Below, in pieces: positions 4,625-63,699 of a DNA stretch of 64,000 bases. Where the stretch lies: NCBI GenBank assembly GCA_041649135.1, contig JBAZNQ010000002.1, forward strand, positions 143,702 through 207,701, given 5' to 3'. The DNA is from Patescibacteria group bacterium (GTDB lineage Bacteria; Patescibacteriota; Kazan-3B-28). The position numbers and the translations under genes were made by a program. The notes below the pieces were generated by a model. The model saw only the letters and a program-made list of their open reading frames with translations, was not told the origin of the DNA and did no database searches. The number at the start of each line of letters is the position of its first letter. Position 1 is the first letter of the stretch.

Positions 4625-4780
4625 GTCATTCCCGCCCCCGAGCGGGAATCCAGAAAAGAATAAAAACATTTTTCTGTTTCTATCTGGATTCTCTGGTTCC
4701 GTCCTTCCCTCGTTGAGCTTCCTCCGTCGCTAAGGCTATGGAGGACTCTGACGGAGGACTAACGCAAGCCAGAGAATGAC
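4625..4780. repeat. MITE/REP-like palindromic element copy (GTCATTCCCGC..GCGGGAATCCAGA hairpin, internal ATCCAGAAAAGAA..TTCTATCTGGAT palindrome, right TIR AGAGAATGAC)
   Basis: Terminal inverted repeats GTCATTC / GAATGAC and internal hairpins seen directly; member of a family with at least 17 copies in this window. Confidence 0.6.
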
Positions 4781-4802
4781 AATAAAATATCAAGAAGGAT
4801 TT

Positions 4803-5267
4803 ATGGAAAAGACGTTAGTTGCACTAAAACCCGATGCTGTTCGCAAGGGTTTGCAGGATGAAATTAAAAATCGGTTGACTGCCACTGGGCTGAAAATCGT
4901 AGCTGAAAAAGAGATGCAGGTTGATGCCACTTTTGCAAGTGAACACTATTCCGATCTAGGTATTCGCAAAGGTGAAGATGTAAAACGCCGAATGGTCACC
5001 TTCTTGTCGTCTGGTCCAGTTATCACCATGATTATTGAAGGTGAAAATGCTATTGAGGAAGTCAGACGGATTGTTGGCAAAACCTTACCTGCCGATGCTG
5101 ATGTCGGCACAATCCGTGGCGATCTTGGTGACAGGGAAGAAAGTTACGCGAAAGCTGATGAAGCAGACAGAGCCGTTGAAAATCTAATTCACGCTTCCGA
5201 TGCTCCAGAAACGGCCGCCGCCGAAATCAAACTCTGGTTTCCAGAGCTGGATAGTCGCGAGTGGTGA
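4803..5267 (+). CDS. ndk: Nucleoside diphosphate kinase
   Basis: TLVALKPDAVRKGL, SSGPVITMIIEGENAIEEVRRIVGKT, GTIRGDLG and NLIHASD (catalytic His) match the Ndk family. AGGA sits 8 nt upstream of the ATG at 4803. The track start at 4776 lies inside the MITE right TIR (gaATGac) and is probably not the real start. Confidence 0.85.
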   Translation: MEKTLVALKPDAVRKGLQDEIKNRLTATGLKIVAEKEMQVDATFASEHYSDLGIRKGEDVKRRMVTFLSSGPVITMIIEGENAIEEVRRIVGKTLPADADVGTIRGDLGDREESYAKADEADRAVENLIHASDAPETAAAEIKLWFPELDSREW

Positions 5268-5470
5268 GTCACGAGTTGTAAGTAGCGAGTGGCAGCGAGT
5301 AGGACTCCTTTTACTTGCGAAGCCCCACATAACTCACAAGAGCGTAGAATGGTCATCCTGAACGGAGCGTTAGCGAAGTTGAAGGATCTAGGCGATAGCC
5401 GTTTTGCTAACCTTGTTCACCTACCGATGGACGGGTCAGTTCGTCCAGATGCATCCAAAATCTTCTCTCT

Positions 5471-5561
5471 CGTCATTCCCGACCTGATCGGGAATCCAGA
5501 AAAGAATAAAAACAGTTTTTTCTTTTTCTGTACAGATTCTCCAATCAAGTTGGAGAATGAC
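5471..5561. repeat. MITE/REP-like palindromic element copy
   Basis: cGTCATTCCCGACCTGATCGGGAATCCAGAAAAGAATAAAAAC...TTGGAGAATGACag; the TIRs and hairpin are visible directly. Confidence 0.6.
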
Positions 5562-5702
5562 AGACAAAAGTAACCCAAAATGACCAGTCACCACGTTGCG
5601 GCGGAGCGCAACAACGTTGTAACGCCGGTCTAATTTTCCACTTCCACAAAGAAAAATGCCACCGCAACGATTTTGCGGTGGCTTGTATTGACGAACCATA
5701 GA

Positions 5703-6131
5703 TCAGCCAGATAGTTGGGAACATTCATCTCTCTGAAATTGAATACACCGGTTGATCATCTCGTCCGTAGCTGCTCTCATTTCAGGATCATTCTCCCATA
5801 AACCTCCACCCGAGTTCAGATAGCGGTATAACAGAGTCAATTCCTCTGCGGTTACCATGTCAACTACGCAGGTGCTAACCCTCTTCAGAATAAGAGTTCG
5901 ATTCTCCTGCCAGTGTCTTCGGCAAACTCCCCTCAAAAACCACTGACAAAGTAGTGATTCTGCCAGAAAGTCTACCGCCACTAACAAAAACGAATAATCC
6001 TCTGATGGCCGTCGTGCAATGTATTTGTACACGAGAGGCATGTTGCAAACTACCTCACGGAGCAGCCACCCGCCAATGAGGCACAACACTACTAACGCTA
6101 GGAGTGTATCAAGGTTCATTGAATTTGCCAC
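5703..6131 (-). CDS. Hypothetical Cys-rich protein with an N-terminal hydrophobic segment (142 aa)
   Basis: Only the ORF plus an N-terminal TM-like stretch (LALVVLCLIGGWLL). It sits in a repeat-rich region and has no recognisable family. Confidence 0.25.
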   Translation of the reverse strand: MANSMNLDTLLALVVLCLIGGWLLREVVCNMPLVYKYIARRPSEDYSFLLVAVDFLAESLLCQWFLRGVCRRHWQENRTLILKRVSTCVVDMVTAEELTLLYRYLNSGGGLWENDPEMRAATDEMINRCIQFQRDECSQLSG

Positions 6132-6290
6132 CTCCCTTTTGATGGCTTCAATCTAACTGCTATATCTCCCCCAGTCAACCCCTGTGCCCCCGTTCCTTCC
6201 CCATTGCCGAATCCTCGTAGACCATTCATAGCCCATAGGGCGAAGTAGGGCCGAATTGCTGAATTGTCCACCGTTCCCCTCTTTTCTCTC

Positions 6291-6660
6291 GTCATTCTGG
6301 TAAGCGAAACGCATCCAGAATCGTATAATTGACGCAATTTACTCCATTGTGTCATTCTGGTATTCCCGTCATTCCCGTGCCCGCCTGCAACGATGCCCGC
6401 CAGAAACGCTGTATCTACTGCGGACTGGTAGCACTTCGGGCAGGAAAACGGGAATCCAAACCCCGTCCGTCATTCCCGCGTAGGCGGGAATCCAGACAGA
6501 AACAAGAACATTTTTCTTTTTATTTCTGGGTCCCCGATGTCGGATGGCTTTGCCTCCGGCTCGAGGATGACAACACGGGGAATATGGCATCATTTAATAA
6601 GATTCTGGGCACCTGCCCGAAATGCTACGCATAGCGTTGCAGGCGGGAGCCAGAATGACG
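6291..6660. repeat. Composite cluster of MITE/REP-like elements; 6366..6571 is about 97% identical to 26121..26327
   Basis: Multiple GTCATTCYGG / CCAGAATGAC units; the long internal unit is duplicated elsewhere in the window. Track ORFs 6329..6634 and 6369..6593 are artefacts of the repeat. Confidence 0.6.
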
Positions 6661-6894
6661 ATAGACAGGGTCATGTCTCCTGCTCCACCACTACTCAATT
6701 GCCTGTCCACCTTGGATTGGCTCAATTGTTGAATCGCCGAATTCCCCCTCCCAACCACTATTGGCTTGTGGCTGGCCTCCGGTGGCTAGTGACTGTGGAT
6801 AACTCCCTATCCCCTATCTTATTTTTTACAAATATACGTTTTTGTGGTGTAATTTAATTACGAGCAACCTTTTACGAGAGTAATTCTCGTAAAT

Positions 6895-7245
6895 AGTCCG
6901 TCCTGTGCTCCTTGATAACAAACGATCTCTTAGTACCTTGCTAAGGGAGAGTCAAATGGCCACAGGACCAAAGCTGACTCTTCCAAGTGCTGGAAGGGTT
7001 TTATGTACTTTAACCGGTCGCGCACCGGCACATCAATAGGTTTCCCATCCCAGCACCGCCTTATGGACAGGCGAGTTCCTCGCCTGTCCCCTTTCTTGAA
7101 TATCACTTTCCACAACATTCCTCCGGTATCCTGCCGGAGGACTTTTAAATTCCCAACAAAGAACCTCACACACAACATCAGCAGCAGAACACTGGAAGAA
7201 GGTCATTTGTTGTCCCTCAATGTCATTACATTGAGGTTTTTTTAT
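6895..7245 (+). ncRNA. Candidate structured non-coding RNA (several strong hairpins) ending in a rho-independent terminator
   Basis: Hairpins GTCCTGTG..CACAGGAC, GGACAGGCGAG-ttcc-CTCGCCTGTCC and CCTCCGG-tatcctg-CCGGAGG, then the terminal CCTCAATGTCATTACATTGAGG followed by TTTTTTTATTT. No convincing ORF, and no match to RNase P, SRP or 6S motifs that I could see. Confidence 0.2.
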
Positions 7246-7850: not shown

Positions 7851-7853
7851 TTA

Positions 7854-9113: not shown

Positions 9114-9219
9114 CCTTACGTCATGTCATCCTTGAGGTCGCCGTGGCTACCCAAGGATCTATAATAACCTCATGAACCAATCGTGAAGTTTGTCATGAAT
9201 TTAGCCGCACAGATTTAAA

Positions 9220-10644
9220 ATGACCAAACAGAAAACTATTCGGTCTGGAAGCGCAAAACCAACTGTTTTTGTCGCGATGAGTGGGGGAGTCGACTCCTCT
9301 GTCGCCGCCGCCCTGTTACAACAACAGGGTTTTAACGTAGTCGGCGTGTTTATGAAGAACTGGTCGGACGCTTCAGATGTCGGAGGTGGCCTTACTTATT
9401 GCACCGCCGAACAAGACTTTTTGGATATGCGAGCAGTCTGTCAGCACTTGGATATTCCTTACTACACTTTCAATTTTGAAACAGAATACAAAAAACGAGT
9501 GCTAGATTACTTTTTTGCCGAATATAAAGCCGGTCGGACTCCCAATCCGGATGTCATGTGTAATAAAGAAGTCAAATTCGACCTCTTTCTCAAAAAATGT
9601 TTGGCTCTGGGAGCAGATTTTATTGCTACTGGGCATTACGCCCAGCGAGTCGCGAGTCGCGAGTCGCGAGTAATGAGTGACAACCCAATCGTCATTCCGG
9701 CCTCCGAGCCGGAATCCAGACAAAAAAATCCCTCTCTAGCCTCTCGCGACTCGTCACTCGCGACTCATCACTTACTCCTGAAAGGAGCAGACCCCATCAA
9801 AGATCAAACTTATTTTCTCTACAACTTAACCCAAGACCAGCTAGCGAAAACGCTTTTTCCGGTCGGTCAGTACCCCAAAAGCCAAGTTCGCGCCCTCGCT
9901 CGCAAATTTAAACTGCCAACTGCTACCAAAAAAGACAGTCAGGGAATTTGTTTTATCGGTCCCGTAGACGTTAAAGAATTTTTAAAAACTGTGATTAAAA
10001 CCAAAACTGGTAAAATTGTCAATCAAGAGGGGAAAATGCTTGGTACTCACGAAGGGGCTTGGTTTTACACCATTGGTCAGCGTCGGGTGGAAGGTCTAGC
10101 CGGTCAACCCGAGCCTTTGTATGTCATTGATACGGATATTAAGAAAAATCTGGTAATTGTTGGCCCAGATTCCGCCACCTATGGCAAAGGGGTAATTTTA
10201 GAAAATCTGCATTGGGTAGAACCAAGCTATCAAAATTGTCATCCCCGACCTGATCGGGGATCCAGACAGAAAAAGAAAATAGATTCCCGCCTTCGCGGGA
10301 ATGACGGAGAAGAGAACGGGAATGACGCATGGGATTTACAAGCTAAACCCAGATATGGCCCAGAGGTCTATGGGGGGAAATTGGTATTAGAACAAGTCGC
10401 GAGTAACGGGTCGCGAGGGACTAGTAGCAAAGCAGTCGTCATTCCGGCCCCGCCTGCCCGCCTTTGGGGGGAGCCGGAATCCAGACAAAAAAAGAGCCCT
10501 CGTCTCCCGTCTCTCGTCTCTCACGATTCCTACTCCTTCATCTTCGACCACCCCCAGCGCGCTCTTACTCGCGGTCAATCACTGGTCATCTACGACGAAG
10601 ACATCTGTCTCGGCGGGGGTGTTATTGAAAAAGTCATCAAATAA
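9220..10644 (+). CDS. mnmA: tRNA-specific 2-thiouridylase MnmA, carrying three in-frame palindromic-element insertions
   Basis: VFVAMSGGVDSSVAAALL (PP-loop), YKAGRTPNPDVMCNKEVKF, IATGHY, KDQTYFLY, QGICFIG and a CLGGGVIE C-terminus all align with MnmA. The protein is 474 aa against about 365 for typical MnmA; the extra segments coincide with repeat-element copies. Confidence 0.85.
   Translation: MTKQKTIRSGSAKPTVFVAMSGGVDSSVAAALLQQQGFNVVGVFMKNWSDASDVGGGLTYCTAEQDFLDMRAVCQHLDIPYYTFNFETEYKKRVLDYFFAEYKAGRTPNPDVMCNKEVKFDLFLKKCLALGADFIATGHYAQRVASRESRVMSDNPIVIPASEPESRQKNPSLASRDSSLATHHLLLKGADPIKDQTYFLYNLTQDQLAKTLFPVGQYPKSQVRALARKFKLPTATKKDSQGICFIGPVDVKEFLKTVIKTKTGKIVNQEGKMLGTHEGAWFYTIGQRRVEGLAGQPEPLYVIDTDIKKNLVIVGPDSATYGKGVILENLHWVEPSYQNCHPRPDRGSRQKKKIDSRLRGNDGEENGNDAWDLQAKPRYGPEVYGGKLVLEQVASNGSRGTSSKAVVIPAPPARLWGEPESRQKKSPRLPSLVSHDSYSFIFDHPQRALTRGQSLVIYDEDICLGGGVIEKVIK
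9691..9720. repeat. MITE/REP-like hairpin core inserted in-frame in mnmA (insertion 1, encoding ..NPIVIPASEPESRQKNP..)
   Basis: GTCATTCCGGCCTCCGAGCCGGAATCCAGA, flanked by GTCGCGA heptamer repeats (9649-9672 and an inverted copy at 9738-9770). Confidence 0.6.
10238..10295. repeat. MITE/REP-like element inserted in-frame in mnmA (insertion 2, encoding ..CHPRPDRGSRQKKK..)
   Basis: GTCATCCCCGACCTGATCGGGGATCCAGACAGAAAAAG...CGCGGGAATGACGG. Confidence 0.6.
10438..10492. repeat. MITE/REP-like element inserted in-frame in mnmA (insertion 3, encoding ..VVIPAPPARLWGEPESRQKK..)
   Basis: GTCATTCCGGCCCCGCCTGCCCGCCTTTGGGGGGAGCCGGAATCCAGACAAAAAAAG. Confidence 0.6.
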
Positions 10645-11322: not shown

Positions 11323-11393
11323 GTCATTCTAGCAAACCCCTCCTTCCGTCATTCTGGAGTCTTTTGCCATACGGCAGAATTCCCAGAATGACG
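11323..11393. repeat. MITE/REP-like palindromic element copy
   Basis: GTCATTCTAGC...GTCATTCTGGAG...CCCAGAATGACG. Confidence 0.5.
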
Positions 11394-12391: not shown

Positions 12392-12583
12392 CGTCATCCC
12401 GTGTTCTGCACTGTCATCCCGAACACTCCGTATTGTCATCCTGAACCCTGGCTGCGTCCCGCACCCGCGGGCAAGCTTGATTCAGGATCCAGTCTCATTC
12501 CGTCCGTCATTCCTGCGGAGGCAGGAATCCAGTTTCTCCCTAACAAACAAATAAAATAGATTCCGGACTAAACCCGGAATGAC
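12392..12583. repeat. Cluster of MITE/REP-like palindromic units between the sigma-factor gene and the downstream membrane-protein gene
   Basis: cGTCATCCCGTG, TGTCATCCCGAAC, TGTCATCCTGAACC..GATTCAGGATCC, CGTCATTCCTGCGGAGGCAGGAATCCAG, CCGGAATGACAAC. Confidence 0.55.
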
Positions 12584-18582: not shown

Positions 18583-18669
18583 GTCATTCCGGCCTACGAG
18601 CCGGAATCCAGAAAAGAACAGAAATGTTGGTTGTCTCTTTGCTAGATCCTGAAATGAATTCAGGATGAC
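18583..18669. repeat. MITE/REP-like palindromic element copy
   Basis: cGTCATTCCGGCCTACGAGCCGGAATCCAGAAAAGAACAGAAATG...CCTGAAATGAATTCAGGATGACac. Confidence 0.6.
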
Positions 18670-21611: not shown

Positions 21612-21995
21612 ATGGGGGAACAGGGGAAGATTAAGAGTTTTACCGACCTGAACGCTTGGCAAGAGGGGCATAAATTGGTTATCATGATATATGTCCTGAC
21701 TAAGACTTTCCCTGATGGGGAGACTTACGGACTTGTTAGTCAGATGCAACGATGCGCAGTGTCTATTACTTCCAATCTGGCTGAAGGCTTTAGCCGACAA
21801 TCATACAGAGAGAAGGTTCAGTTTTACTCTATATCACAGGGCTCCGTAACTGAATTACAAAACCAACTCCTAGTTGCTCGTGATGTTGGGCATGTCTCCC
21901 AATCACAATTTGAGCAACTTGCCAGTCAAGTCATCACTGTACATAAATTGGTTAGTGGGCTGATAAAAAGCTCCAAGTCATTCGTCCGTCCATAA
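21612..21995 (+). CDS. Four-helix-bundle protein of the '23S rRNA intervening-sequence protein' family (TIGR02436-like)
   Basis: AWQEGHKLVIMIYVLTKTFPDGETYGLVSQMQRCAVSITSNLAEGFSRQSYREKVQFYSISQGSVTEL is the family signature. Flanked by inverted AATTATGAATCA repeats. Confidence 0.75.
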   Translation: MGEQGKIKSFTDLNAWQEGHKLVIMIYVLTKTFPDGETYGLVSQMQRCAVSITSNLAEGFSRQSYREKVQFYSISQGSVTELQNQLLVARDVGHVSQSQFEQLASQVITVHKLVSGLIKSSKSFVRP

Positions 21996-25946: not shown

Positions 25947-26120
25947 AAAAACCTTGTTCTAAATTACCTTTTTTGCTACCCTGTGATAGACGAATGGTCT
26001 TATAGGCAAATAGACTTGTCGATTAGCCTATCCACCTATTAGTCTATCAGTCAATCAGCCTATCAGCCAATCTGCTTTCTCGTCCATCTCTCACCCTTTG
26101 TCATTACAACTCTCCTCTCC

Positions 26121-26327
26121 GTCATTCCCGCGCCCGCCTGCAACGATGCCCGCCAGAAACGCTGTATCTACTGCGGACTGGTAGCACTTCGGGCAGGAAA
26201 ACGGGAATCCAGACCCCGTCCGTCATTCCCGCGTAGGCGGGAATCCAGACAGAAACAAGAACATTTTTCTTTTTATTTCTGGATCCCCGACGTCGGATGG
26301 CTTTGCCTCCGGCTCGAGGATGACAAA
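26121..26327. repeat. Composite MITE/REP-like element, about 97% identical to 6366..6571
   Basis: GTCATTCCCGCGCCCGCCTGCAACGATGCCCGCCAGAAACGCTGTATCTACTGCGGACTGG...GGATCCCCGACGTCGGATGGCTTTGCCTCCGGCTCGAGGATGACAA. Track ORF 26122..26355 is an artefact of the repeat. Confidence 0.65.
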
Positions 26328-26639: not shown

Positions 26640-26723
26640 GTCATTCCGGACTTGTTCCGGAATCTAGACATAAAAAGAAACATTTTTGTTCTTGTCTGGA
26701 TTCTGAAATAAATTCAGAATGAC
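26640..26723. repeat. MITE/REP-like palindromic element copy
   Basis: tGTCATTCCGGACTTGTTCCGGAATCTAGACATAAAAAGAAACATTTTTG...TGAAATAAATTCAGAATGACg. Confidence 0.6.
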
Positions 26724-39198: not shown

Positions 39199-39441
39199 AT
39201 GTATTATGTCTATCTATTGCGTAGTCATAAAGACAAGCGACAAAATTACATTGGCAGTACGGCAGATTTGAGAACTCGACTCGTGGCACATAATGCAGGT
39301 CAATCTCCACACACCAGCAAATTCAAACCCTGGGGCGTCATTTGCTACATCGCCTTCAAGACTAAAGTTCAAGCTGAGAAATTCGAGACCTATCTTAAGG
39401 CCGGTTCCGGCAAAGCATTCGCCAACAAGCATTTGTTCTAA
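39199..39441 (+). CDS. Stand-alone GIY-YIG nuclease-domain protein (80 aa)
   Basis: MYYVYLLRSHKDKRQNYIGSTADLRTRLVAHNAG gives the GIY-YIG signature (YVYLL...YIGST.DL..RL..HN). Confidence 0.7.
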   Translation: MYYVYLLRSHKDKRQNYIGSTADLRTRLVAHNAGQSPHTSKFKPWGVICYIAFKTKVQAEKFETYLKAGSGKAFANKHLF

Positions 39442-39545
39442 ATCTCCTTTGTGGGACTGGTTTTTTATTTGACAGCAAGGTGCAGTTGGAATATAATGTG
39501 CCCATCACGGGGGCTCTGATGCCCCTTACTTTGGAGGTGGTGCAA

Positions 39546-39968: not shown

Positions 39969-40041
39969 TCCCTTATGTCGCCGTCATTCAAGCAGGCTCT
40001 GGAGTCCAACTCCATCCTGTTTTTTCTTTATCCAAATTCTG

Positions 40042-40518: not shown

Positions 40519-40777
40519 TTCTATGATTATCTCCTATCTTGGTCATTGGAGCGAGGTCATCTTCTTTCACACCTTCGCCATTGGAGTCCGAACGTCCTGT
40601 CGCAATAAAATTAGCGCTGGCGAAGCTGTTGTTTGAGGTCGCCATAGGCGACCGAGTTCAGCGAGAGCGAAGAAAGCTAATTTTATTAGCGACAGAGTAA
40701 GGACGACTGGCGGGCGACTTTGGTTACTTTCCTCAAGCGGAAAGTAACAATTGCTGAAGCGCAATTTGACGCTTCAA

Positions 40778-40833
40778 AACAAAAAAGAAACACTTTCTGT
40801 TTCTATCTGGATTCCCGCCTGCGCGGGAATGAC
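40778..40833. repeat. Partial MITE/REP-like element (internal palindrome plus right hairpin)
   Basis: AAAAAAGAAACACTTTCTGTTTCTATCTGGATTCCCGCCTGCGCGGGAATGACG. Confidence 0.5.
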
Positions 40834-40867
40834 GAAAAATAAAAAGAAAAAATGCTACCCGCAGGGA

Positions 40868-43192: not shown

Positions 43193-43306
43193 AGCTTTGA
43201 TTCCAACAAACCTATTATAACGACAGGGAAACTTACTTGCCAATCGCATTTTTGGCGACGTTCCCCCTGACGCTCTATGATAAGATGACTACAGGAGGAA
43301 GGCAAT

Positions 43307-44167
43307 ATGAGGGGGCAACTCTGGTGGATAAAACTAGCTTTGGGAGCGATTTTTATTGGGCTCATCGGTTGGTGGGTTGCGCCCTACTTTTCTGGTCGCA
43401 GTTTAATCAACCCAGTCTGGCTAACTGTCGGCTCAATTCAGCTTTACTGGTATGGTCTACTGATGACTATCGGTATTTTTAGCGGTTTTGGTCTGGTATT
43501 TTGGCTCAACCGTCAATTATTTCAATTAAACAGCGATCATTTGTTCTACTCTCTCGTTAGCGCAGTTATCGGTGGTTTCATCGGTGCCCGACTGGTATTT
43601 GTTATCCTCGCTTGGCCAATCTATGTCAACAATCTCGATCAAATTTGGCAAATCCATAGTGGCGGCATGAGTATTCATGGCGGAATCCTCGGCGGTTTGT
43701 TGGGACTTTGGGCGGGGAGCCGAATGTTAAAAATTGACTTTAGCCGTCTGGTTGATCTCTGCGCAATTGCTCTCCCGCTGGGACAAGCGATTGGCCGATG
43801 GGGAAATTTCTTTAATCAAGAAGCCTTTGGTGGTCCGACCGACCTTTCTTGGAAAATGTTTGTGGCACCAGAATTTCGTCCGGTTGGATTAACCGACCAA
43901 GCCTTTTACCATCCGACTTTTTTATACGAAGCTACTGGTAGCTTAATTATTTTTTGGCTACTCTGGCGTCTTATCTTTCGCCGCCCCCAGAGCGGCACAG
44001 TCGCACTCTGGTATCTGATACTATATAGTAGCTGGCGGTTTATCATGGAGTATTTTCGGATTGACAGTCAGCAATGGAACATTCTGACTATCGCCCAGTG
44101 GGCAAGTCTGGCTATTGTTGTTGTCGCTGTCATATTACTTAATCGACGCAGAAATTATGGGAATTGA
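43307..44167 (+). CDS. lgt: Prolipoprotein diacylglyceryl transferase
   Basis: YWYGLLMTIGIFSGF, HGGILGGLLGLWAG and the Lgt signature GQAIGRWGNFFNQEAFGGPTDLSWKMFV. Confidence 0.85.
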   Translation: MRGQLWWIKLALGAIFIGLIGWWVAPYFSGRSLINPVWLTVGSIQLYWYGLLMTIGIFSGFGLVFWLNRQLFQLNSDHLFYSLVSAVIGGFIGARLVFVILAWPIYVNNLDQIWQIHSGGMSIHGGILGGLLGLWAGSRMLKIDFSRLVDLCAIALPLGQAIGRWGNFFNQEAFGGPTDLSWKMFVAPEFRPVGLTDQAFYHPTFLYEATGSLIIFWLLWRLIFRRPQSGTVALWYLILYSSWRFIMEYFRIDSQQWNILTIAQWASLAIVVVAVILLNRRRNYGN

Positions 44168-45143
44168 ACTTATCATCATTGGGGGATTAGCTGTTGCGCT
44201 AGTATTTGCGCTGGTGGTGATTTGGCAACGATCAAAACCAATTACCGACCAAGGCCTAAGCCACAATCTCGAAATCATTGCCCAATCCATGCAGAGGGTT
44301 CAATCCGAACAACGTGCCAGTCAGGAAGTCCAGCGTACTCTCAAAGATGAATTGCGCCACACCGCTGACCATCTCAAAAATCTAACCGTTGCTTCCGAAG
44401 AACGCGAACAGCGCGATCAAACTTATTTTAAAAATCTCTTAGAGGCTTCCAAGAATATCGAGAGCGTGATGCGGGGGAGCAAGACCAAAGGCATGGCCGG
44501 CGAAAACATTGTTCGGGAGATTTTGAAAATCTTTCCCCAAGGCACTATGGTCTATGACTTCAAAATCGGCAGTAAGGTGGTTGAGTTTGGTCTCAAATTG
44601 CCGGACGGTCGGATTTTGCCAATCGACTCCAAGATTATGGCTTCCGACGAATTACAGGAACTCGCTACTTCTGACAACGAAGATGCCAAATTAAAAATCA
44701 TTCAAAAGCTGGAGCTAGCGGTTTTACGCAAAGCTCGTGAAGTTGGCGAATACATTTCACCACCAGTCACTTACGAGCGGGCGATTATGGCGGTACCAGA
44801 TTCGCTTCATTATTTGTTGAAAGAATCCATCATCAAAGCTCATCGCGACTACGGTGTGTTGATTATTTCTTATAGCATGACCATCCCTTATATCCTGTCG
44901 TTTATGGATCTTCAGCGTAAACACAGCACTCACCTTGATGAAGAACGGGTAAAAACTTTTCTCGAAAGTTTGAATTTGTCACTTTCTAAGATGGATGACA
45001 TTCTCGACAACAAGGTCGCCAAAGGTAACGTCATGATTAGCAATGCGTATGGTGAATATAAGCAGATTGTTAGTAAAATAAGAGGAGACGCATTAGGTTT
45101 GCGTGCGGTCGAAGAAGCCGCCAAGTTAGAACAACCCAAATGA
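44157..45143 (+). CDS. rmuC: DNA recombination protein RmuC family
   Basis: N-terminal TM and coiled coil; GMAGENIVREILKIFPQGTMVYDFKIGSKVVEFGLKLPDGRILPIDSKI matches the RmuC core. Overlaps the lgt stop by 11 nt. Confidence 0.6.
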   Translation: MGIELIIIGGLAVALVFALVVIWQRSKPITDQGLSHNLEIIAQSMQRVQSEQRASQEVQRTLKDELRHTADHLKNLTVASEEREQRDQTYFKNLLEASKNIESVMRGSKTKGMAGENIVREILKIFPQGTMVYDFKIGSKVVEFGLKLPDGRILPIDSKIMASDELQELATSDNEDAKLKIIQKLELAVLRKAREVGEYISPPVTYERAIMAVPDSLHYLLKESIIKAHRDYGVLIISYSMTIPYILSFMDLQRKHSTHLDEERVKTFLESLNLSLSKMDDILDNKVAKGNVMISNAYGEYKQIVSKIRGDALGLRAVEEAAKLEQPK

Positions 45144-45505
45144 AAATTTTTAAAAGAATTTTAGTTATCGGTGGCAATACATTATTGCTGATTTTGCTGT
45201 CCGGCAACCTCTGGCAGTTGTATCAGTCCTATCTCACTGCCCAAGATTTGTTAAATCAACAGCTTCTCACTAGCGACCCAGACGCTCTCATTCGCAATAT
45301 CAATCAAGCTGGCGGTTCACTCTGGCTCTGGGGGGCTAACATTCTGGCTGTATTAATCGGGTTGTTTTTATTAATCGGCTGGTTTACTCCAGTCCGGTAT
45401 AAGAAATGGTTCTGGACTTTCAATTGGATCTGGCTGTTGGCGTGGCTGGTCTATTTACTTGCCAGCGCAGTATTACTAATAGTTTTGGTTAATCAACTTG
45501 CTTAA
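45140..45505 (+). CDS. Small integral membrane protein (about 4 TM), hypothetical
   Basis: Hydrophobic helices only. Confidence 0.45.
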   Translation: MKIFKRILVIGGNTLLLILLSGNLWQLYQSYLTAQDLLNQQLLTSDPDALIRNINQAGGSLWLWGANILAVLIGLFLLIGWFTPVRYKKWFWTFNWIWLLAWLVYLLASAVLLIVLVNQLA

Positions 45506-45508
45506 CTT

Positions 45509-46531
45509 ATGGGGGAAAAGGAACCCAATAAAAAACCCAACCTCGGTAGCCTGCTATTTTTAATTCTGGCACTGGTAGCGATTGGGGTAATTGGTTATAT
45601 GACCATCGAAGGCTGGAGTTTTCTTGATGCCCTCTACATGGTGGTCATTACTCTTGCTACCGTTGGTTTCAAGGAAGTCCATGCCATGTCACCCGCCGGC
45701 ACTATCTTTACCATTCTGTTAATTATCTTCGGACTGATTACGCTTTATTACGTTGTCAGATTATTGAGCGAATATATACTGGAAAATAAGCTGGAAGAGA
45801 CTTTAAAATATAAGAAGATGGAAAAAACTTTACGCAATCTGTCCGGTCACTACATTATTTGTGGCTTTGGTCGGGTCGGTCATCAAGTTGTTCATGAACT
45901 TAGTCATGATAGTGCGGAGTTTGTGGTTATCGAACGCAATCCCAAAGCCATTGAAGCTTGCGAACGGCTGGGATATCCCTGTATCAACGGAGATGCTACC
46001 GATGAAGACGCCCTGAAACAGGCTGGGATTCTCAATGCCAAAGGTTTGATTCTCTGTTTGGGGGAAGACAGCGATACAGTGCTGACTGTCGTTACTGCTC
46101 GGTCGATGAGCAAGGATATTTTTATTGTTGCTCGTGCCAGTGGTGAAAATACTGCCGGCAAACTGCTAAAAATCGGCGCCAATCGAGTAGTTTCGCCTCA
46201 CCAGATCGGGGGATTTCGGATGGCCAACTTTGCTATTAATCCGGAAGTAGCCGATTTTATTGACGATATCCAAGACCTGTCCAATACTGAAGTTCAGATT
46301 GACGATGTAGTTGTGCCATTAGATTCTCCCGCCGCTGGTCATACCATCGCTGAACGGCTGTCCAACCGCACCTACGGAGTGACTATCCTAGCCATCCATA
46401 AGCAAGACGGCGAAGCGATTATCAATCCCACGGGTGACGTCGGGGTTGAAGGTGGTGACCGCCTGATTTTACTTGGCACCAAAGGCAAACTCGACGCTAT
46501 GGTAAAATTACTGGGTACCCATACTCGCTGA
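45509..46531 (+). CDS. RCK-domain (TrkA-N/TrkA-C) potassium-channel family protein with an atypical pore sequence
   Basis: Two TM segments and a pore helix with filter-like TLATVGFKEV (canonical is TVGYGD); Rossmann motif ICGFGRVGHQVV (RCK/TrkA-N); a TrkA-C-like C-terminus. Confidence 0.7.
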   Translation: MGEKEPNKKPNLGSLLFLILALVAIGVIGYMTIEGWSFLDALYMVVITLATVGFKEVHAMSPAGTIFTILLIIFGLITLYYVVRLLSEYILENKLEETLKYKKMEKTLRNLSGHYIICGFGRVGHQVVHELSHDSAEFVVIERNPKAIEACERLGYPCINGDATDEDALKQAGILNAKGLILCLGEDSDTVLTVVTARSMSKDIFIVARASGENTAGKLLKIGANRVVSPHQIGGFRMANFAINPEVADFIDDIQDLSNTEVQIDDVVVPLDSPAAGHTIAERLSNRTYGVTILAIHKQDGEAIINPTGDVGVEGGDRLILLGTKGKLDAMVKLLGTHTR

Positions 46532-46547
46532 TTATAGGAGACACATC

Positions 46548-46916
46548 ATGGATTCACATTATTCCACAGAATTCTTAAATGCGCGCAAAGCTGATCTCGA
46601 GCGCCAAAAGGGGGAGCTGGAAAATCAATTACACCAGATTGCTCGCTACGATAATGCTTCTGGTAGTTGGGTGACACTCCAACCAGAGTTTGATTCCGGT
46701 ACTACTGAAGATGTTGGTGACCGTAGCGACGAAGCTCAAACTCTAGAAGAGAATCAAGCCCAAGTCGCCGAATTAGAAAAGTCATTGGTTGAAACCGATT
46801 ACGCTTTGGCTAAATTCGCCGACGGTAGTTATGGTAAGTGTGAAACCACCGGTGACTGGCTGGACGAAGCTCGACTGGTTGCTTATCCTGCCGCTCGAAT
46901 CTGTACTGACGACTAA
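46548..46916 (+). CDS. DksA/TraR-family protein
   Basis: N-terminal coiled coil; C-terminal YGKCETTGDWLDEARLVAYPAARIC (TraR/DksA zinc-finger region, with two Cys retained). Confidence 0.5.
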   Translation: MDSHYSTEFLNARKADLERQKGELENQLHQIARYDNASGSWVTLQPEFDSGTTEDVGDRSDEAQTLEENQAQVAELEKSLVETDYALAKFADGSYGKCETTGDWLDEARLVAYPAARICTDD

Positions 46917-46920
46917 TATT

Positions 46921-47334
46921 ATGAAACAGTTCGGTTTATCTCCGGTCGCACTTTTCTGGCTGGCGGTAGTATTTATGGTCATCGCTGGTCAGCTCATCCG
47001 TTTGAGCCAATTAAATCGAGTGATTTTTAATTACGCGTTGGCTTTCAGTATTGATGCCCCACTATTATTAATCTATATTATCTCTGTCCTTTTTTTGGGT
47101 GTGGTTATTTGGCTATTTTACAGTCGAGCTGTCACCACCTTACTTGGAATTATCGGTCTGGGACTGATTTTTGGCGGCGGTGCTTCCAATTTGATTGATC
47201 GGATACTGTTTGATGGCGGCGTCGCAGATTACTGGCACTTAATGGACATCAGCACAATTAATTTTGCAGATATTGCTATTACCGCCGGTATTATGCTTGT
47301 TCTATACCAATTTTTATTTCATCATGAATCCTGA
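46921..47334 (+). CDS. lspA: Lipoprotein signal peptidase (signal peptidase II)
   Basis: GGGASNLIDRILFDGGVADYW and NFADIAITAGIMLVL match the LspA conserved blocks; the ATG at 46921 is in frame with the track ORF that begins at 46789. Confidence 0.8.
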   Translation: MKQFGLSPVALFWLAVVFMVIAGQLIRLSQLNRVIFNYALAFSIDAPLLLIYIISVLFLGVVIWLFYSRAVTTLLGIIGLGLIFGGGASNLIDRILFDGGVADYWHLMDISTINFADIAITAGIMLVLYQFLFHHES

Positions 47335-47983
47335 AATTATTTTTGAAGATTCCGATTTATTAGTATTGGACAAACCAGCCGGTTTGATAGTCCATGAAGG
47401 TCATGGGCAGACTGACGCAACTTTGGTTGATTGGCTGAAAACTCGCTATCCTAAGTCGCCATTGAGCGAGGAGCGGTATGGTTTGTTACACCGGCTCGAC
47501 AAAGATACTTCGGGGCTGATTTTAGTTGCCAAGACTTTGGCGGCATTCAAGTATTACAAAAAATTATTCAAACAGCGCGCCATTACCAAACAGTATCTGG
47601 CGCTAGTCCACGGTCGGCTAACCCCAACTCGGGGGCTGATCCAAATTCCACTAGCTCGGGGATTGGTTAATCGGACTCGGTTTGAACCAGCTACCAGTGG
47701 CCGCTCGGCCGAAACCGAATACAATGTTGAAACGTATTATCCCCAGTTTACTTATCTGTCAGTCTGGCCAAAAACTGGGCGCACTCATCAGATTCGGGTA
47801 CATTTTGCCAGCCTTGGGCATCCGATTGTCGGCGATAAAGTTTATGGCAAACCCGATGCGTTTACCCGTCAGTTTCTCCATGCCCATCGGCTGGATTTTA
47901 TTGATCAGAAAGGCAAAAATTGTAAATTTATCTCACCGCTTCCGGCAGATCTAGATCAGTTTTTAAGGAACTTGTCCCGTTAG
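47324..47983 (+). CDS. rluD: RluA-family 23S rRNA pseudouridine synthase (RluD-like)
   Basis: LVLDKPAGLIVH, HRLDKDTSGLILVAKT (catalytic Asp) and THQIRVHFASLGHPIVGDKVYG; lspA-rluD is a conserved gene pair. Confidence 0.85.
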   Translation: MNPEIIFEDSDLLVLDKPAGLIVHEGHGQTDATLVDWLKTRYPKSPLSEERYGLLHRLDKDTSGLILVAKTLAAFKYYKKLFKQRAITKQYLALVHGRLTPTRGLIQIPLARGLVNRTRFEPATSGRSAETEYNVETYYPQFTYLSVWPKTGRTHQIRVHFASLGHPIVGDKVYGKPDAFTRQFLHAHRLDFIDQKGKNCKFISPLPADLDQFLRNLSR

Positions 47984-48107
47984 AAGTTTGTCATTATCTC
48001 ATCGGGGCTTATCCTAAAGATTATAATTATGATTTCTATTGGTGTATCAATAACTGCGCGTAAAAATAATTCCAGAGAATTATTTTTCGCCGAGGACTTC
48101 TAACGGG

Positions 48108-48671
48108 ATGAAATCAAATAAAATTTTTATTATGGCCGGTCCGTCAGCGGTTGGTAAGAATGCGATTATCGCTGGCTTATTAAAATCCGATTTGCCATTA
48201 CAACGGATGATTACCACTACTTCCCGCCCGCCGCGCTCCGGTGATTCTCCCAACGATTATCACTTCGTCAGCCGAGAACAATTTATGGCTTGGGTAGCCG
48301 AAGATAAAATGATCGAATGGGTAGAATATAATCAAAATCTCTATGGTACTCGCAAACAAGATTTGGAAGATATTTTTACCGCCGGTAAGTTCCCGATCAT
48401 GGATATTGATGTCCGCGGTGTCGCATCGTTCAAGCAACTTTTCCCCAATGTCGTAGCTATTTTTATTTTACCCAGTAGCTTATCAATTCTGCGCCAGCGA
48501 CTGGAAGCTCGCGGTACTGCCGAACATGACATTCGGGAACGATTAAAAACCGCCCAATCCGAAATTGAGTTGGCGCCTAGTTTTGATTATCGGATTACTA
48601 ATTACAACGGCAAGTTAGCCAATGTCGTCAAAGATGCAGCCACGATTGTCCAGCACGAATTAGCCGGCTAA
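48108..48671 (+). CDS. gmk: Guanylate kinase
   Basis: P-loop MAGPSAVGKNAI, TTTSRPPRSGDSPNDYHFVSREQF and EWVEYNQNLYGT. Confidence 0.85.
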   Translation: MKSNKIFIMAGPSAVGKNAIIAGLLKSDLPLQRMITTTSRPPRSGDSPNDYHFVSREQFMAWVAEDKMIEWVEYNQNLYGTRKQDLEDIFTAGKFPIMDIDVRGVASFKQLFPNVVAIFILPSSLSILRQRLEARGTAEHDIRERLKTAQSEIELAPSFDYRITNYNGKLANVVKDAATIVQHELAG

Positions 48672-51177: not shown

Positions 51178-51210
51178 GTCATTCTGGTAATTCTGCTGTA
51201 CAGCAGAAGC
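51178..51210. repeat. MITE/REP-like hairpin core
   Basis: GTCATTCTGGTAATTCTGCTGTACAGCAGAAGCATCCAGAATC. Confidence 0.5.
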
Positions 51211-51272: not shown

Positions 51273-51683
51273 ATGAACAATCACGACTTCAATCAATTAC
51301 CAATTCTACCAGATCCGTTGGAAAATCAGGCAACTCCTTTGCCAATTTCCACCGAACCACAAGTCGTCAACCAACGATCACTTCTCGCGACTCGCGACTC
51401 TTCACTCGCGACTCTCCATCCTCGTCGCAATTACCTTCGAGCGGGTCTAATTTTTGGTGGCGCGATCGCTATCCTGACGTTGGTTTTATTCGGTTCCCGT
51501 TTGATCGATCTACTGAATTTGCGCGGAACCAAAGCCGGCCAGTCAGTAATTTTAAATAGTGATAACTTTGTTGATGGAAATTGGTTTGAAAAAGATAGCG
51601 ACGGCAATCTTCATGAGGGGGACAGTCGCGTTCTATTTGAAGTCGTTGACGGTAAATTAGTACTGAATAACCCCGGTCAGTAA
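51273..51683 (+). CDS. Membrane-anchored small hypothetical protein whose N-terminal region is partly encoded by the GTCGCGA-type repeat
   Basis: SLLATRDSSLATLHP (same peptide module as in the mnmA insertion), then a TM segment (GLIFGGAIAILTLVLFG), then a small extracytoplasmic domain. Confidence 0.45.
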   Translation: MNNHDFNQLPILPDPLENQATPLPISTEPQVVNQRSLLATRDSSLATLHPRRNYLRAGLIFGGAIAILTLVLFGSRLIDLLNLRGTKAGQSVILNSDNFVDGNWFEKDSDGNLHEGDSRVLFEVVDGKLVLNNPGQ

Positions 51684-58030: not shown

Positions 58031-58246
58031 GCCTGACAAGAGCGCAGAATTACCTTTCGGACAGAGTTGCATTGATGTTATCGTGCTCTGTTCATCCCAC
58101 CCCCTTGAGGATAACTCCCAAGGGATTTTGGGTTGATGCCACATTCTAATCCGTCTATGACCTTATCAGAATGACGGAATGAATTCAGCATGATAAAAAT
58201 GTACTACCCCCTAGATACTAGATACTAGATACTAGATACTAAAGGT

Positions 58247-59621: not shown

Positions 59622-59650
59622 GTCATCCCCGCGTAGACGGGGATCCAGAA
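59622..59650. repeat. MITE/REP-like hairpin core
   Basis: GTCATCCCCGCGTAGACGGGGATCCAGAAAATAAAAC. Confidence 0.5.
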
Positions 59651-61599: not shown

Positions 61600-61627
61600 T
61601 CTTAATTTGTTTATCTGAAACCCCCAC

Positions 61628-61656
61628 CAAGCTTGGTGGGGGTTTTGTTGTATCAA
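61628..61656. terminator. Bidirectional rho-independent terminator between convergent genes
   Basis: AAACCCCCACCAAGCTTGGTGGGGGTTTT. Confidence 0.6.
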
Positions 61657-61679
61657 GCGTGTTAGTAGAGAGAATCGTT

Positions 61680-62840
61680 CTAACGCGTATTGCTATTCAG
61701 GATAACATCTTGGCTCCCAGACCCTGTTCCCCCCGAGCTGGGCAACACGATATCATTTTTTAGTGACCCTACAAACTTGTTGCTGGAAATATTAACCTTA
61801 CTGCCAGGCCACCATAGTGTGATGCCTTGGGCGTTGGTGTTCGTTTTGTCGGCTGTGAAGGTATTATTAAACACATTGATGCCCCCGTTTCCTAGGCTGA
61901 TGACTTCTAGCCCTTCACATTTTTCAAGGGTATTCTTGAAGACAAAACTATTACTGTAAACAGACAAAGCTCCCGCGTCTTTTATTCCAGAGAGACCGAA
62001 GGTGCCTGAATGAGAGACGGATGCTCCAATGGTTCCTCCCCATGCGACGTTGAAGATGTTACCGTAGATCTTTCCTACTGTCCGACCTGCGGCAACGATC
62101 TTCGCACTTGTGCCAGGTCTGTGTAGTGCCGCATAGTCAAAAACATTTTTGGTGATCACTAAAGTCCCGCCACCAGGGGAGGACAGCCCTTGGAAACTAT
62201 CCGCTGCGCTTACGTTCAATCCCACTGTAGAGAAATTCAGATTCTGGATTGACCATGTTTTGCCCGGAGCGATAGAACCATTAATGGAGAGCATCACCTC
62301 GGTGTTTCGAATGGTCGTATTAGCGCTTTTCATCAATACTGTCCGACTAGGCGAACCAGCTATGATTATATTCATGTTATTGGGTATGGTGACAGTGTCG
62401 TTAGTAGTAAAGGTATAGGAACCACCATAAAACAACACTTGTGCTGTGGTCGAGCCTTTTGCCAGCGCTATTGCTTTGCCAAGAGTTCGAACTGCGTTAG
62501 TCGAGCTAGTTCCTGAATTAGTATCTTTCCCAGATGTAGCGACATAGATCGTTTTTGCTGTCGTTGCCGCTTCTACTCCCTTCGTGTCATCCTTTGAAAA
62601 TATTGTCCCGATCGTAGCTAAGATTACGATCACCAAAACCGCGATCAGCGCTGGTCGCACCAGCCCACGCACAGACTCTCTCTGGTGGTGATTGACCCTG
62701 CTGTGTGAAATTTTCCGTTTTTTCATCATAAGAACGAATCGTTGTCTAATATAGTAGCACCCACAGCGTAGCACAAAATTTTCTGGCTGGCACTTCATGG
62801 AGGACAACCGCTCCCGACTGGTTATCAGAATAAAAATCAA
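61680..62840 (-). CDS. Secreted right-handed parallel beta-helix (pectate-lyase-fold / DUF1565-like) protein
   Basis: TM/signal (LIAVLVIVILATIGTIF); beta-helix repeat pattern TIYVATSGKDTNSGTSSTNAVRTLGKAIALA...; Asn/Gly/Thr-rich coils. Confidence 0.6.
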   Translation of the reverse strand: MIFILITSRERLSSMKCQPENFVLRCGCYYIRQRFVLMMKKRKISHSRVNHHQRESVRGLVRPALIAVLVIVILATIGTIFSKDDTKGVEAATTAKTIYVATSGKDTNSGTSSTNAVRTLGKAIALAKGSTTAQVLFYGGSYTFTTNDTVTIPNNMNIIIAGSPSRTVLMKSANTTIRNTEVMLSINGSIAPGKTWSIQNLNFSTVGLNVSAADSFQGLSSPGGGTLVITKNVFDYAALHRPGTSAKIVAAGRTVGKIYGNIFNVAWGGTIGASVSHSGTFGLSGIKDAGALSVYSNSFVFKNTLEKCEGLEVISLGNGGINVFNNTFTADKTNTNAQGITLWWPGSKVNISSNKFVGSLKNDIVLPSSGGTGSGSQDVILNSNTR

Positions 62841-62913
62841 AGATTCATACTGTCAAACGACACTCATCATAAGTTAGAGTAGGCTCTCTCTGGTAATTTG
62901 ATACAATATACTC

Positions 62914-63171
62914 ATGAAACTTCAACGTACTGATCAAGCTCTAAGTGATTTTGCCAGAGCGCTTGACCGTTATTATTCCAGTTGGGGTACGCTGATATCC
63001 CGTTCATTTGTTAGCGGGCTGTTTACTGCGCTGGGTGCTACAGTCGGATTAGCGTTAGTATTAGGATTGGGTGGTTTAATCTTGGAACAACTCGGCGTTC
63101 TGCCAGTGGTTGGAGGATTTTTTGGCCGCATCAATGATGTGTTAAATCACACTCTTTCCATCAATAAATAA
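62914..63171 (+). CDS. Small hypothetical membrane protein
   Basis: ORF with a TM segment (LFTALGATVGLALVLGLGGLIL). Confidence 0.4.
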   Translation: MKLQRTDQALSDFARALDRYYSSWGTLISRSFVSGLFTALGATVGLALVLGLGGLILEQLGVLPVVGGFFGRINDVLNHTLSINK

Positions 63172-63620
63172 TGTTGATCACACCACACTTTTTGACTGGT
63201 GTTGCTATCGCTGGAGGAGTGCCAGAAATTGCCCCCGCCGCCATTGCGGCGGTTGGTTCGCATTTCGTATTGGATGCCATTCCCCATCGAGACACGCTAG
63301 GCGGACATCATTTGAATTTTGCCAACGTAGCGCTATCCATTTTGGACGGCTGGTTGGCCATTGAGCTTTGGTGGTGGTTAACCCCCGAACCCATCCGTTG
63401 GTACGCATTTACTGTCGGTATGTTTGCTTGTTTGCCAGACTTTATTGAACTCCCCGGTGTCTTTTGGCCAAAATGGAACGAATTGCCGCTTCAAAAACAA
63501 TTCCATAATTGGCACACCGCCATCCTACAATATTCCCGCGAGCCGAAAAGCTGGGTAATTGGTCTGCTGCCACAAGTCGTCCTCACTAGTATTCTGATTT
63601 ATCTTCTTTTGTCATCCTGA
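63171..63620 (+). CDS. Hypothetical integral membrane protein; its stop codon lies inside a MITE terminal repeat
   Basis: Several TM helices; the stop TGA at 63618-63620 is part of GTCATCCTGA. Confidence 0.45.
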   Translation: MLITPHFLTGVAIAGGVPEIAPAAIAAVGSHFVLDAIPHRDTLGGHHLNFANVALSILDGWLAIELWWWLTPEPIRWYAFTVGMFACLPDFIELPGVFWPKWNELPLQKQFHNWHTAILQYSREPKSWVIGLLPQVVLTSILIYLLLSS

Positions 63621-63699
63621 ACTCGTTTCAGGATCCCTGTCCGACTGAATGATTTGGTCGTTCGGGTGGGTAGATGCTGAAATAAATTCAGCATGACGG
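63611..63699. repeat. MITE/REP-like palindromic element copy
   Basis: GTCATCCTGAACTCGTTTCAGGATCC...GATGCTGAAATAAATTCAGCATGACgg. Confidence 0.55.

Follow-up and report, generated by a model that had tools for sequence, protein, structure and literature searches.

CGTC-tagged palindromic repeats expanded in a Patescibacteria genome, with a possible link to Ssn-type GIY-YIG nucleases

The DNA studied here raises the question of what kind of element is represented by a dense set of short palindromic repeats in the genome of a bacterium of the candidate phyla radiation (CPR), and which enzyme would recognize it. The repeats lie in a stretch of 64,000 nucleotides from a Patescibacteria group bacterium of the Kazan-3B-28 lineage (GenBank assembly GCA_041649135.1, contig JBAZNQ010000002.1, positions 143,702 to 207,701 of the forward strand; this whole stretch is called the window, and coordinates refer to it). 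[quoted passage not shown] The explanation that we favor overall, with a probability of roughly 60%, is that these are CGTC-tagged REPs that expanded in a CPR genome and that would be recognized in single-stranded DNA (ssDNA) by an Ssn-type nuclease. The family identity of the repeats, the conservation of their structure, their duplication and nesting, and their tolerance within an open reading frame (ORF) could be established directly.

A structure-aware scan of the window combined with manual curation yielded approximately 34 hairpin units at 19 loci, which occupy about 2.1 kb (3.3% of the window) at a local density of about 0.5 units per kb. Each of the 18 intervals listed in the initial annotation contained at least one unit of the form described there, with 5352-5390, 51178-51210 and 58167-58194 as the weakest cases. 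The repeats are real, but the given count of at least 17 copies was an underestimate and the locus at 9125-9158 had not been listed. A unit consists, in order, of an unpaired Y-GTC tag, a stem of 8-9 bp that starts with ATYC, a loop, the complementary arm running to GRAT, C(C/T)AG, and an A-rich run; like the tag, the tail behind the stem is unpaired. GTC, which served as the search anchor, was present in 34 of 34 catalogued units; the base 5' of it, which was not used in selection, was C or T in all 34, and position -2 before the tag was a pyrimidine in 32. The 12 nt preceding the tag were 74% pyrimidine against a background of 50%, often in the form of a CT-rich run such as CTCTTCTCTTC; this flank may belong to the element or may reflect a preference for certain targets. 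On the 3' side, the first base after the stem was C in 30 of 33 units (tail CCA in 18 and CTA in 7 of the 33). Loops measured 4-7 nt in 18 of 34 units and 12-74 nt in 16. About 20 distinct 8-nt stem types occur in the window (17 by the tally of the structure scan); the base of the stem is constant (A-T, T-A, Y-R, C-G), and the upper four pairs need only pair.

Both the tag and the hairpin were strongly enriched. GTCATYC occurred 53 times in the window, compared with 15.7 ± 3.9 expected from dinucleotide shuffles, and GTC with a perfect hairpin directly behind it (7 bp or more in the stem, no more than 12 nt in the loop) was found 20 times, versus 1.09 ± 1.0 in shuffles (maximum 4). When 33 units were aligned over eight stem pairs, 97% of the stem cells were paired. 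Pair 1 was A-T in 32 of the 33, the single unpaired cell belonging to a near-duplicate copy, and pair 2 was T-A in all of them; with that one exception pairs 1, 2 and 4 (A-T, T-A, C-G) were invariant, while pair 3 (T-A or C-G) and pairs 5-8 (three to five pair types each) co-varied. Two-sided changes at five of the eight pairs amounted to 64 cells versus 19 ± 5 in shuffles (0 of 500 shuffles reached 64), and sliding the partner arm by 1-3 columns lowered the pairing to 20-58%. Stem pairs of the G-T type were few (four at pair 5, one at pair 6 and two at pair 8). Because the 33-unit set had partly been picked by pairing, the test was run again on 18 sites selected by their flanks only (GTCATYC...GRATC). 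Here, 67 of 72 inner stem positions were Watson-Crick paired (25% expected) with nine different inner tetramers; one of the sites (35796, with one of four positions paired), and hence one tetramer, was a chance match. The compensatory stem variation that the initial annotation had noted is thus confirmed, and since the stems co-vary, what is kept in the upper stem is the structure and not the sequence. Chance similarity of hairpins was rejected by the shuffles and by the flank-only pairing test. The copies also share far more than the short GTCATYC and GRATGAC ends, since the stem base, the tail and the spacer between paired units are conserved across the window as well.

Repeats of this kind are already on record. 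Di Nocera, De Gregorio and Rocco (2013; PMC3733652) defined a superfamily of CGTC-tagged REPs with a CGTC or TGTC tag, stems of 8-9 bp beginning with AT (A-T, T-A), loops typically of 4-5 nt (exceptions with other lengths were noted) and a tail that is mostly CCA. These form inverted dimers, often heterodimers, with spacers of 20-100 bp that have complementary ends, and they also occur as intragenic copies. The superfamily includes Neisseria dRS3 and Rickettsia RPE-6 (both CGTC-1) as well as RPE-4 (CGTC-4), and the phyla given for it were Proteobacteria, Chlorobi, Bacteroidetes, Spirochaetes and Thermotogae (PMC3733652). In Neisseria, the NTS (CGTCATTCCCGCGMAVGCGGGAATCYRG) encloses dRS3 (ATTCCC-N8-GGGAAT), and NTS-like 'Ssn-related motifs' (SRMs) are spread across phyla (Chenal et al. 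2025, PMC11893778). The window repeats resemble the CGTC REPs in their tag, their 8-9 bp stem starting with AT, their CCA-type tail and the heterogeneity of stems within one genome, and also in having inverted heterodimers, spacers with complementary ends, copies inside genes and no transposase nearby. All features of the window family agree with that description apart from the many long loops. With the Neisseria NTS and the SRMs they share the unit itself, the tolerance of different loops, the clustering around genes, and a conserved GTC before and C after the palindrome, which are determinants of cleavage and binding by the nuclease SsnA. One exact 28-nt match to the NTS was found (40807-40834), together with several copies with one mismatch and four dRS3 sites. 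The published SRM pattern gave six matches versus 0.19 expected; only these six of the approximately 34 units fit it, owing to the stem and loop variants of the others. That the window repeats belong to the CGTC-tagged REP/SRM family, with Neisseria dRS3/NTS and Rickettsia RPE-4/-6 among its members, is in our view very likely. The kind of repeat, including its heterodimers, structured spacers and intragenic copies, was known from the work of 2013 and 2025, and the repeats do not reveal a new kind of system. New points are the phylum of the host, the density, how often loops carry inserts and how wide the range of stem types is: Patescibacteria lie outside the list of 2013 and are not mentioned in the main text of PMC11893778, the local density is very high, and the stem types exceed what the four described families suggest.

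Most units are members of inverted pairs; at about ten loci two units form such a pair, with tags facing outward, around a spacer. This spacer is an A/T-rich palindrome of 35-40 nt that reads CCAGA, an A-rich run, CATTTTT, a T-rich run and TCTGG and, together with the far end GRATGAC, it agrees with the shared architecture proposed in the initial annotation. The resulting composites are mosaics of 85-210 bp. All of the approximately ten dimers are heterodimers, and because the stems within a pair always differ, each arm pairs with itself and not with the partner arm; folding of the composites as ssDNA accordingly predicted three hairpins (z = -3.6 to -6.4). As for the terminal repeats by which MITEs are recognized, the element ends are inverted (GTCATYC...GRATGAC), with self-pairing arms of differing stems. 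One composite of 208 bp is present twice, at 6366-6573 and 26119-26326; the two copies are 98% identical, have unrelated flanks, and one of them is nested inside another element. Modules have been reassorted among composites, as illustrated by the long-loop ATCCTCGA unit at 6571, 26324 and 29194 (minus strand). The long loops are recurring modules themselves, and the hairpin loops may be insertion sites for such modules. Many copies are degenerate, truncated or nested. We consider it probable that the elements are or were mobile, a view to which the three separate insertions in mnmA and an independent unit in the same mnmA loop of an unrelated CPR contig (both described below) also contribute. 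In the Neisseria intergenic mosaic elements (NIMEs), segments of repeated sequence have inverted hairpins of the dRS3 type on either side. The window modules are likewise bracketed by inverted hairpins and reassorted between copies into mosaics, but the window spacer is a single conserved, short A/T-rich palindrome, whereas NIME RS segments are diverse and 50-150 bp long. With respect to the loop modules, sharing was seen between 6571, 26324 and 29194 (-), between 4780 (-) and 29053 (+), and between 6368/26121 (+), 6659 (-) and 10438 (+), with gccggaggcRaagccatccgacR and cccgcctgcaacg...ttcgggcagg as examples; a motif akin to the third module (CCTCCGTAGCTC..GAGCGAAGGACGG) occurs at 39025-39060, upstream of a GIY-YIG nuclease gene that is discussed below.

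Units were also found inside a gene. The gene for the tRNA 2-thiouridine synthase MnmA (9220-10644, plus strand), which is itself no member of the repeat family, encodes 474 aa, compared with ~370 aa in homologues, and its Pfam and NCBIfam match falls in three stretches. By alignment to an MnmA of known structure (PDB 2HMA) and to 10 CPR homologues, three insertions were located that coincide with units at 9691, 10238-10326 and 10438; their boundaries are approximate, because the closest relative is 54% identical. Insertion 1 (9648-9775, plus strand, ~35 aa) contains a unit at 9691-9715 with stem ATTCCGGC, a CCAGA-A-rich tail and inverted arms of the heptad AGTCGCG. Insertion 2 (10238-10326, both strands, ~28 aa) is an inverted dimer of ATCCCCGA and ATTCCCGC with a shortened spacer and an extra half unit. 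Insertion 3 (10395-10530, plus strand, ~43 aa, outer limits approximate) carries a unit at 10438-10480 with stem ATTCCGGC, a 24-nt loop and flanking arms. Altogether, five units at three sites account for ~350 inserted nt, and the frame is open throughout. An unrelated CPR contig (L127, 4741-4782) carries an independent CGTC unit in the same mnmA loop, encoding the peptide VIPGLTRNPE. The Rickettsia palindromic elements RPE-4 and RPE-6 (Ogata et al.) are similar in that palindromic insertions lie in frame in genes that stay open and are presumably functional, and mnmA carries three such insertions; they differ in host lineage and in that a single gene is affected in the window, and the likeness is one of description, not of aligned sequences. 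In this the mnmA insertions behave as RPEs and intragenic CGTC REPs have been described to do. Copies of the window family accumulate between genes, and inside genes they survive only if in frame and free of stop codons, as in mnmA. Peptides of spurious ORFs derived from the repeats read VIPA..GIQ, SFPRRRES and RLRGND. With an annotation label, a repeat that is strewn through CPR assemblies, spawns spurious ORFs and inflates real proteins would have a precise name. Both the in-frame mnmA units and the GIY-YIG gene had been overlooked initially. In the mnmA genes of three other CPR contigs (L152, L119 and L095), unrelated in-frame repeat insertions occupy the same two surface positions; examples of the encoded peptides are FPAFALGxKRTGDRHGSLN and TNYELRI, each of which occurs twice (in L152 and L095, respectively). 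The heptad, as tandem AGTCGCG(AG), is a second repeat with 23 matches versus 9.3 expected; it occurs at 5253-5289, 9648-9670, 9743-9765 (-), 10395-10417 and 51384-51413 (-), and it encodes 'LA(S/T)RDSSLAT' both in MnmA and in a hypothetical ORF at 51273-51683.

Which enzyme could act on the hairpins? In the Neisseria system, small GIY-YIG nucleases (SsnA, 94 aa, cd10448) bind and cut the motifs only when these are ssDNA; binding depends above all on the C that follows the palindrome and cleavage on the three nucleotides that precede the palindrome, loop identity is dispensable, the loop can be extended, and RNA is not bound (PMC11893778). The genes of these nucleases are typically bracketed by motifs, with an SRM within 5 kb of 71% of SsnA homologues, and the pyrimidine-rich flank of the window tags corresponds to the region in which Neisseria SsnA was reported to cut (PMC11893778). 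By analogy, the window hairpins would extrude when DNA becomes single-stranded, for instance during replication, repair or DNA uptake, and would then be bound by a small, single-strand-specific endonuclease of the Ssn-type GIY-YIG kind. Such an enzyme would read the tag, the base of the stem and the C that follows the stem, and would cut a small number of nucleotides upstream, within the pyrimidine-rich flank. A search for the NTS pattern in IMG/VR viral contigs, after which the locus set comprised 290 loci in all, recovered an autonomous-looking form, in which GIY-YIG genes are bracketed by inverted NTS units (e.g. L207, 7785-8165, a complete NTS-gene-NTS unit), as well as gene-less inverted NTS pairs with varied spacers; in other taxa, the spacers of NTS pairs are not related by sequence. 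The window composites are formally a gene-less version of the NTS-ssnA-NTS layout. Several observations weigh against our explanation. No Ssn-clade (cd10448-like) gene was found in the ~73 kb searched, i.e. the window and ~9 kb of extra flank. In contrast to the Neisseria system, the upper stem varies freely here, and the ~20 stem types are not obviously served by one enzyme, because SsnA activity is abolished by an altered palindrome even when the hairpin is kept (PMC11893778). Nearly half of the window units carry loop inserts of 12-74 nt, in which they differ from the described CGTC REPs. As to mobility, no target-site duplication, a check proposed in the initial annotation, was visible at either copy of the 208-bp composite, the one recently duplicated pair, and no presence/absence polymorphism was seen in strain contigs, which were 99.99-100% identical at all element sites or shared the single copy. 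Taking these points into account, we regard the action of an Ssn-type enzyme on the hairpins in this organism as possible, with the odds slightly against it.

The one nuclease-like gene that we found in the window encodes a different small GIY-YIG protein, and the hairpins might instead be recognized by this protein, as a second, SLX1-like small family working like Ssn. The ORF (39200-39442, plus strand; 80 aa, single domain), located by a six-frame motif scan immediately 3' of the tmRNA gene (38601-38971), matches PF01541 with E = 1.2e-14 over residues 1-71. It has the right size and domain content, its residues Y5, Y17 and E63 are spaced nearly as Y6, Y17 and E64 of SsnA, and its family, like that of SsnA, is widely kept across phyla: identities of 55-65% extend over Alphaproteobacteria, Verrucomicrobiota, Planctomycetota, Acidobacteriota, Dependentiae and CPR, a distribution suggestive of horizontal spread. 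The nearest species-representative relative is from a candidate division Kazan genome, and the identical protein is recorded at NCBI for a 'Patescibacteria group bacterium' MAG. A profile was built from four NTS-adjacent GIY-YIG proteins of viral contigs (the NTS-flanked profile), and hhalign aligned the ORF to such NTS-flanked proteins with a probability of 96% (26% identity over 70 columns), confined to the GIY-YIG core. The same profile scored the window ORF at 18.1 bits (E = 0.004), versus 156-183 bits for its four builders and two further NTS-adjacent proteins; the C-terminal segment KKWxRxWKxxLIE..NPxWxDL of the NTS-flanked proteins is absent from the ORF, and its best PDB match is SLX1. 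Within the 5-kb flanks of 80 homologous loci, the SRM pattern matched in 7 of 80, far from the share reported for SsnA homologues, and a covariance model built from the window's own units (the model behind all unit bit scores below) gave 8 matches in 692 kb, with none of them next to the gene. In the window itself the nearest unit lies 1.4 kb from the gene and none brackets it, and a 10-kb locus of the Kazan group (L003) has two GIY-YIG paralogues with only one weak unit. The identification of the ORF as an SsnA orthologue was thus rejected by flank association, by profile score and by profile-profile alignment. Judged by these tests, the 80-aa protein is a candidate partner at best, placed outside the Ssn clade, and its recognizing the hairpins seems rather improbable. 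We also consider, as a long shot, that the hairpins of this CPR lineage may no longer be tied to the strict sequence specificity found in Neisseria: a nuclease might read nothing beyond the tag, the four-pair base and the tail, hairpin loops might take up other modules, and the elements might seed new surface loops in essential proteins such as MnmA. If so, any paired upper stem and long loop cargo would be tolerated, and the enzyme could be the SLX1-like 80-aa protein or an unseen one. No other GIY-YIG gene was present in the window, in 79 CPR mnmA loci or in the ~9 kb of extra flank, and a database search with the NTS-flanked profile, whose best 120 matches were only sphingomonad-type proteins, was uninformative on CPR. 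In side observations on this gene family, the tmRNA-adjacent arrangement was also present in L003 (5001-5240), with the second paralogue 1.5 kb away (~6700-6969). A CTTCG...CGAAG hairpin lies 70-120 nt upstream of several homologues, and apart from this loose CTTCG/CGAAG tendency no flanking hairpin motif is shared across the family.

The remaining alternatives dispense with a nuclease of this type. The elements could act mainly as RNA, for example as hairpins that stabilize or terminate mRNAs or as RNase targets, in which case the stem covariation would reflect RNA structure, and many REPs have been argued to be transcribed and to act post-transcriptionally (PMC3733652). Nearly all copies are intergenic, just after or between genes, the few G-T stem pairs would fit such a role, and the solo units appear mostly co-oriented with neighboring genes. 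Yet a terminator pattern (hairpin plus T-run) was present in only 2 of ~20 units in the 16 kb from 4 to 20 kb, both antisense to genes, in a region that has separate, better terminator-like hairpins; the tail is A-rich, not U-rich; copies occur in both orientations and within coding sequence; and the GTC tag and C tail mirror the determinants of a nuclease that binds ssDNA and not RNA (PMC11893778). An Rfam scan of the window returned only the tmRNA and seven tRNAs above gathering thresholds and left the elements unmatched. Terminators and known RNAs are therefore not supported as identities, and a mainly RNA-level role is unlikely, while an RNA-level role, for example in transcript stability, is compatible with a DNA-level role. 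It is also conceivable that the repeats are inert relics, or passive recombination or integration targets (of IS110-type recombinases or filamentous phages), with no dedicated enzyme now. The degenerate, truncated and nested copies and the lack of a cognate enzyme in the searched region fit this, and so does the literature, in which 19% of genomes with more than 200 SRMs are without an SsnA homologue and dRS3 is the target of a phage recombinase (PMC11893778). Against it, stems that are 93-97% paired and the conserved tag, base and tail indicate continuing or recent selection or templated copying, and the two 208-bp composites are nearly identical; we give it only a small chance. TnpA and RAYT enzymes, finally, recognize subterminal ssDNA hairpins and are linked to REP/BIME expansions. 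The initial annotation had suggested a transposase of this HUH/Y1 class (IS200/IS605 TnpA), encoded elsewhere, as the mover of miniature transposons, and hairpin recognition as well as the duplicated composite and nested copies would fit; GTAG REPs, BIMEs and REPINs are also extragenic tagged hairpins with inverted dimers and likely ssDNA recognition. These enzymes, however, go with GTAG-tagged REPs, and the survey of 2013 found CGTC REPs to be without an associated transposase (PMC3733652), whereas the known partner of this family is a GIY-YIG Ssn nuclease. The window tag is Y-GTC in all units and never GTAG, NTS-type units elsewhere bracket GIY-YIG genes instead, and no Y1 transposase was found in the window or in the fetched flanks, which makes this alternative very improbable. 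The initial statement that the window lacks a transposase altogether held up, as Pfam scans and the gene calls of strain contigs returned housekeeping genes only. CGTC-tagged REPs that would be recognized by an Ssn-type enzyme remain our preferred explanation. The repeats extend the CGTC-REP/Ssn-motif family to Patescibacteria, which are thought to depend on DNA uptake, a setting in which the Neisseria NTS and SsnA presumably act. The ~20 stem types and the loop inserts on one tag and tail are in addition a natural substrate panel with which to find out what Ssn-type ssDNA nucleases actually read, a point that bears on proposals to employ these enzymes as programmable ssDNA tools.

The individual copies outside mnmA are as follows. 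Inverted dimer E1 (4625-4780, both strands) has a left unit GTC-ATTCCCGC-loop6-GCGGGAAT-CCAGA (model match 4619-4661, 35 bits) and an A/T-rich palindromic spacer; its right unit, with the tag at 4780 on the minus strand, has stem ATTCTCTG(G) and a 74-nt loop. A degenerate solo unit at 5352-5390 (+), GTC-ATCCTGAA...TTGAAGGAT-CTAG, has a bulged stem and no model match at E<=1. The inverted heterodimer E2 (5471-5561, both strands; stems ATTCCCGA and ATTCTCCAA) has the canonical spacer and folds as ssDNA into three hairpins with z = -6.4. In the nested mosaic at 6291-6660 (both strands), copy A of the 208-bp composite is inserted between outer parts at 6291-6321 (+), a truncated head at 6351, and 6602-6659 (-). 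The solo unit missing from the initial list, upstream of mnmA (9125-9158, +), has stem ATCCTTG, a 17-nt loop and a model score of 22.1 bits (E = 6.5e-4). The region 11323-11393 (both strands) comprises a head remnant and a double-tagged hairpin, GTC-ATTCTGG...CCAGAAT-GAC (11348-11392), which forms a unit on either strand (15.8 bits), and a cluster at 12392-12583 (both strands) comprises two head remnants (12393 and 12413), a unit with a long loop (12435-12488) and an inverted dimer (12506-12583). Heterodimer E6 (18583-18669, both strands) has inverted stems ATTCCGGC and ATCCTGAA. Copy B of the 208-bp composite (26121-26327, both strands) is made up of a long-loop unit, a canonical unit (26222-26244), the spacer and, in inverted orientation, another long-loop unit whose tag lies at 26324. 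The minimal inverted heterodimer E8 (84 bp, 26640-26723, both strands) combines ATTCCGGA and ATTCTGAA with the canonical spacer (ssDNA fold z = -4.75), and inverted dimer E9 (29053-29194, both strands) combines the long-loop units ATCCTCTGG and ATCCTCGA around a spacer, with modules common to E1 and the 208-bp composite. The solo unit with spacer at 40778-40834 (-), which contains the exact 28-nt NTS consensus, is the best model match (48.5 bits). At 51178 (+), where the initial annotation had placed a copy, a solo unit is present with stem ATTCTGG and a ~25-nt loop, but its hairpin ends at 51219; the model match is weak (15 bits). A weak or degenerate unit at 58143-58194 (-) reads ATTCTGAT...ATTAGAAT beside a ATGCTGAA-type remnant (model match 58131-58181, 21.9 bits), and the solo unit at 59622-59650 (+; ATCCCCG, loop, CGGGGAT, CCAGA) lies 60 nt upstream of tRNA-Ala and scores 41.2 bits. 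Inverted dimer E10 (63611-63699, both strands) joins ATCCTGAA and ATGCTGAA through a non-canonical structured spacer. A further inverted dimer of the same family was seen ~1.1-1.3 kb upstream of the window start (L289, 7455-7605).

Nearly all copies lie in short intergenic regions, directly after or between genes. The genes of the window are housekeeping genes (RNase Y, an M16 peptidase, Ndk, MnmA, a sigma factor, RF1, PrmC, L31, Gmk and RNase H), accompanied by SmpB (40042-40518), the tmRNA and the seven tRNAs. On other CPR contigs the unit model gave 18 matches in 596 kb, some with the same stem variants (e.g. ATCCTGAA-tttat-TTCAGGAT), versus ~24 matches in the 64 kb of the window at the same threshold, a number that is high by construction; the family thus occurs at low abundance elsewhere in CPR, with a strong expansion here. 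Short-read strain contigs end inside elements (at ~5499, 11366, 12464 and 63890; L165/L166, L164 and L287), so that the repeats fragment CPR assemblies. Two contigs from the same JGI sample (3300037067; L163 and L001) matched the window at 99.99% identity over 1758-22360 versus 97.1% over 38963-47938, with the intergenic region 47938-48108 replaced, and this uneven identity points to co-existing strains or recombination. The ORF at 21612-21995 has 23S_rRNA_IVP and bAvd-like Pfam matches in the gene calls of a strain contig; proteins of this sort are often found together with diversity-generating retroelements or with intervening sequences of rRNA.

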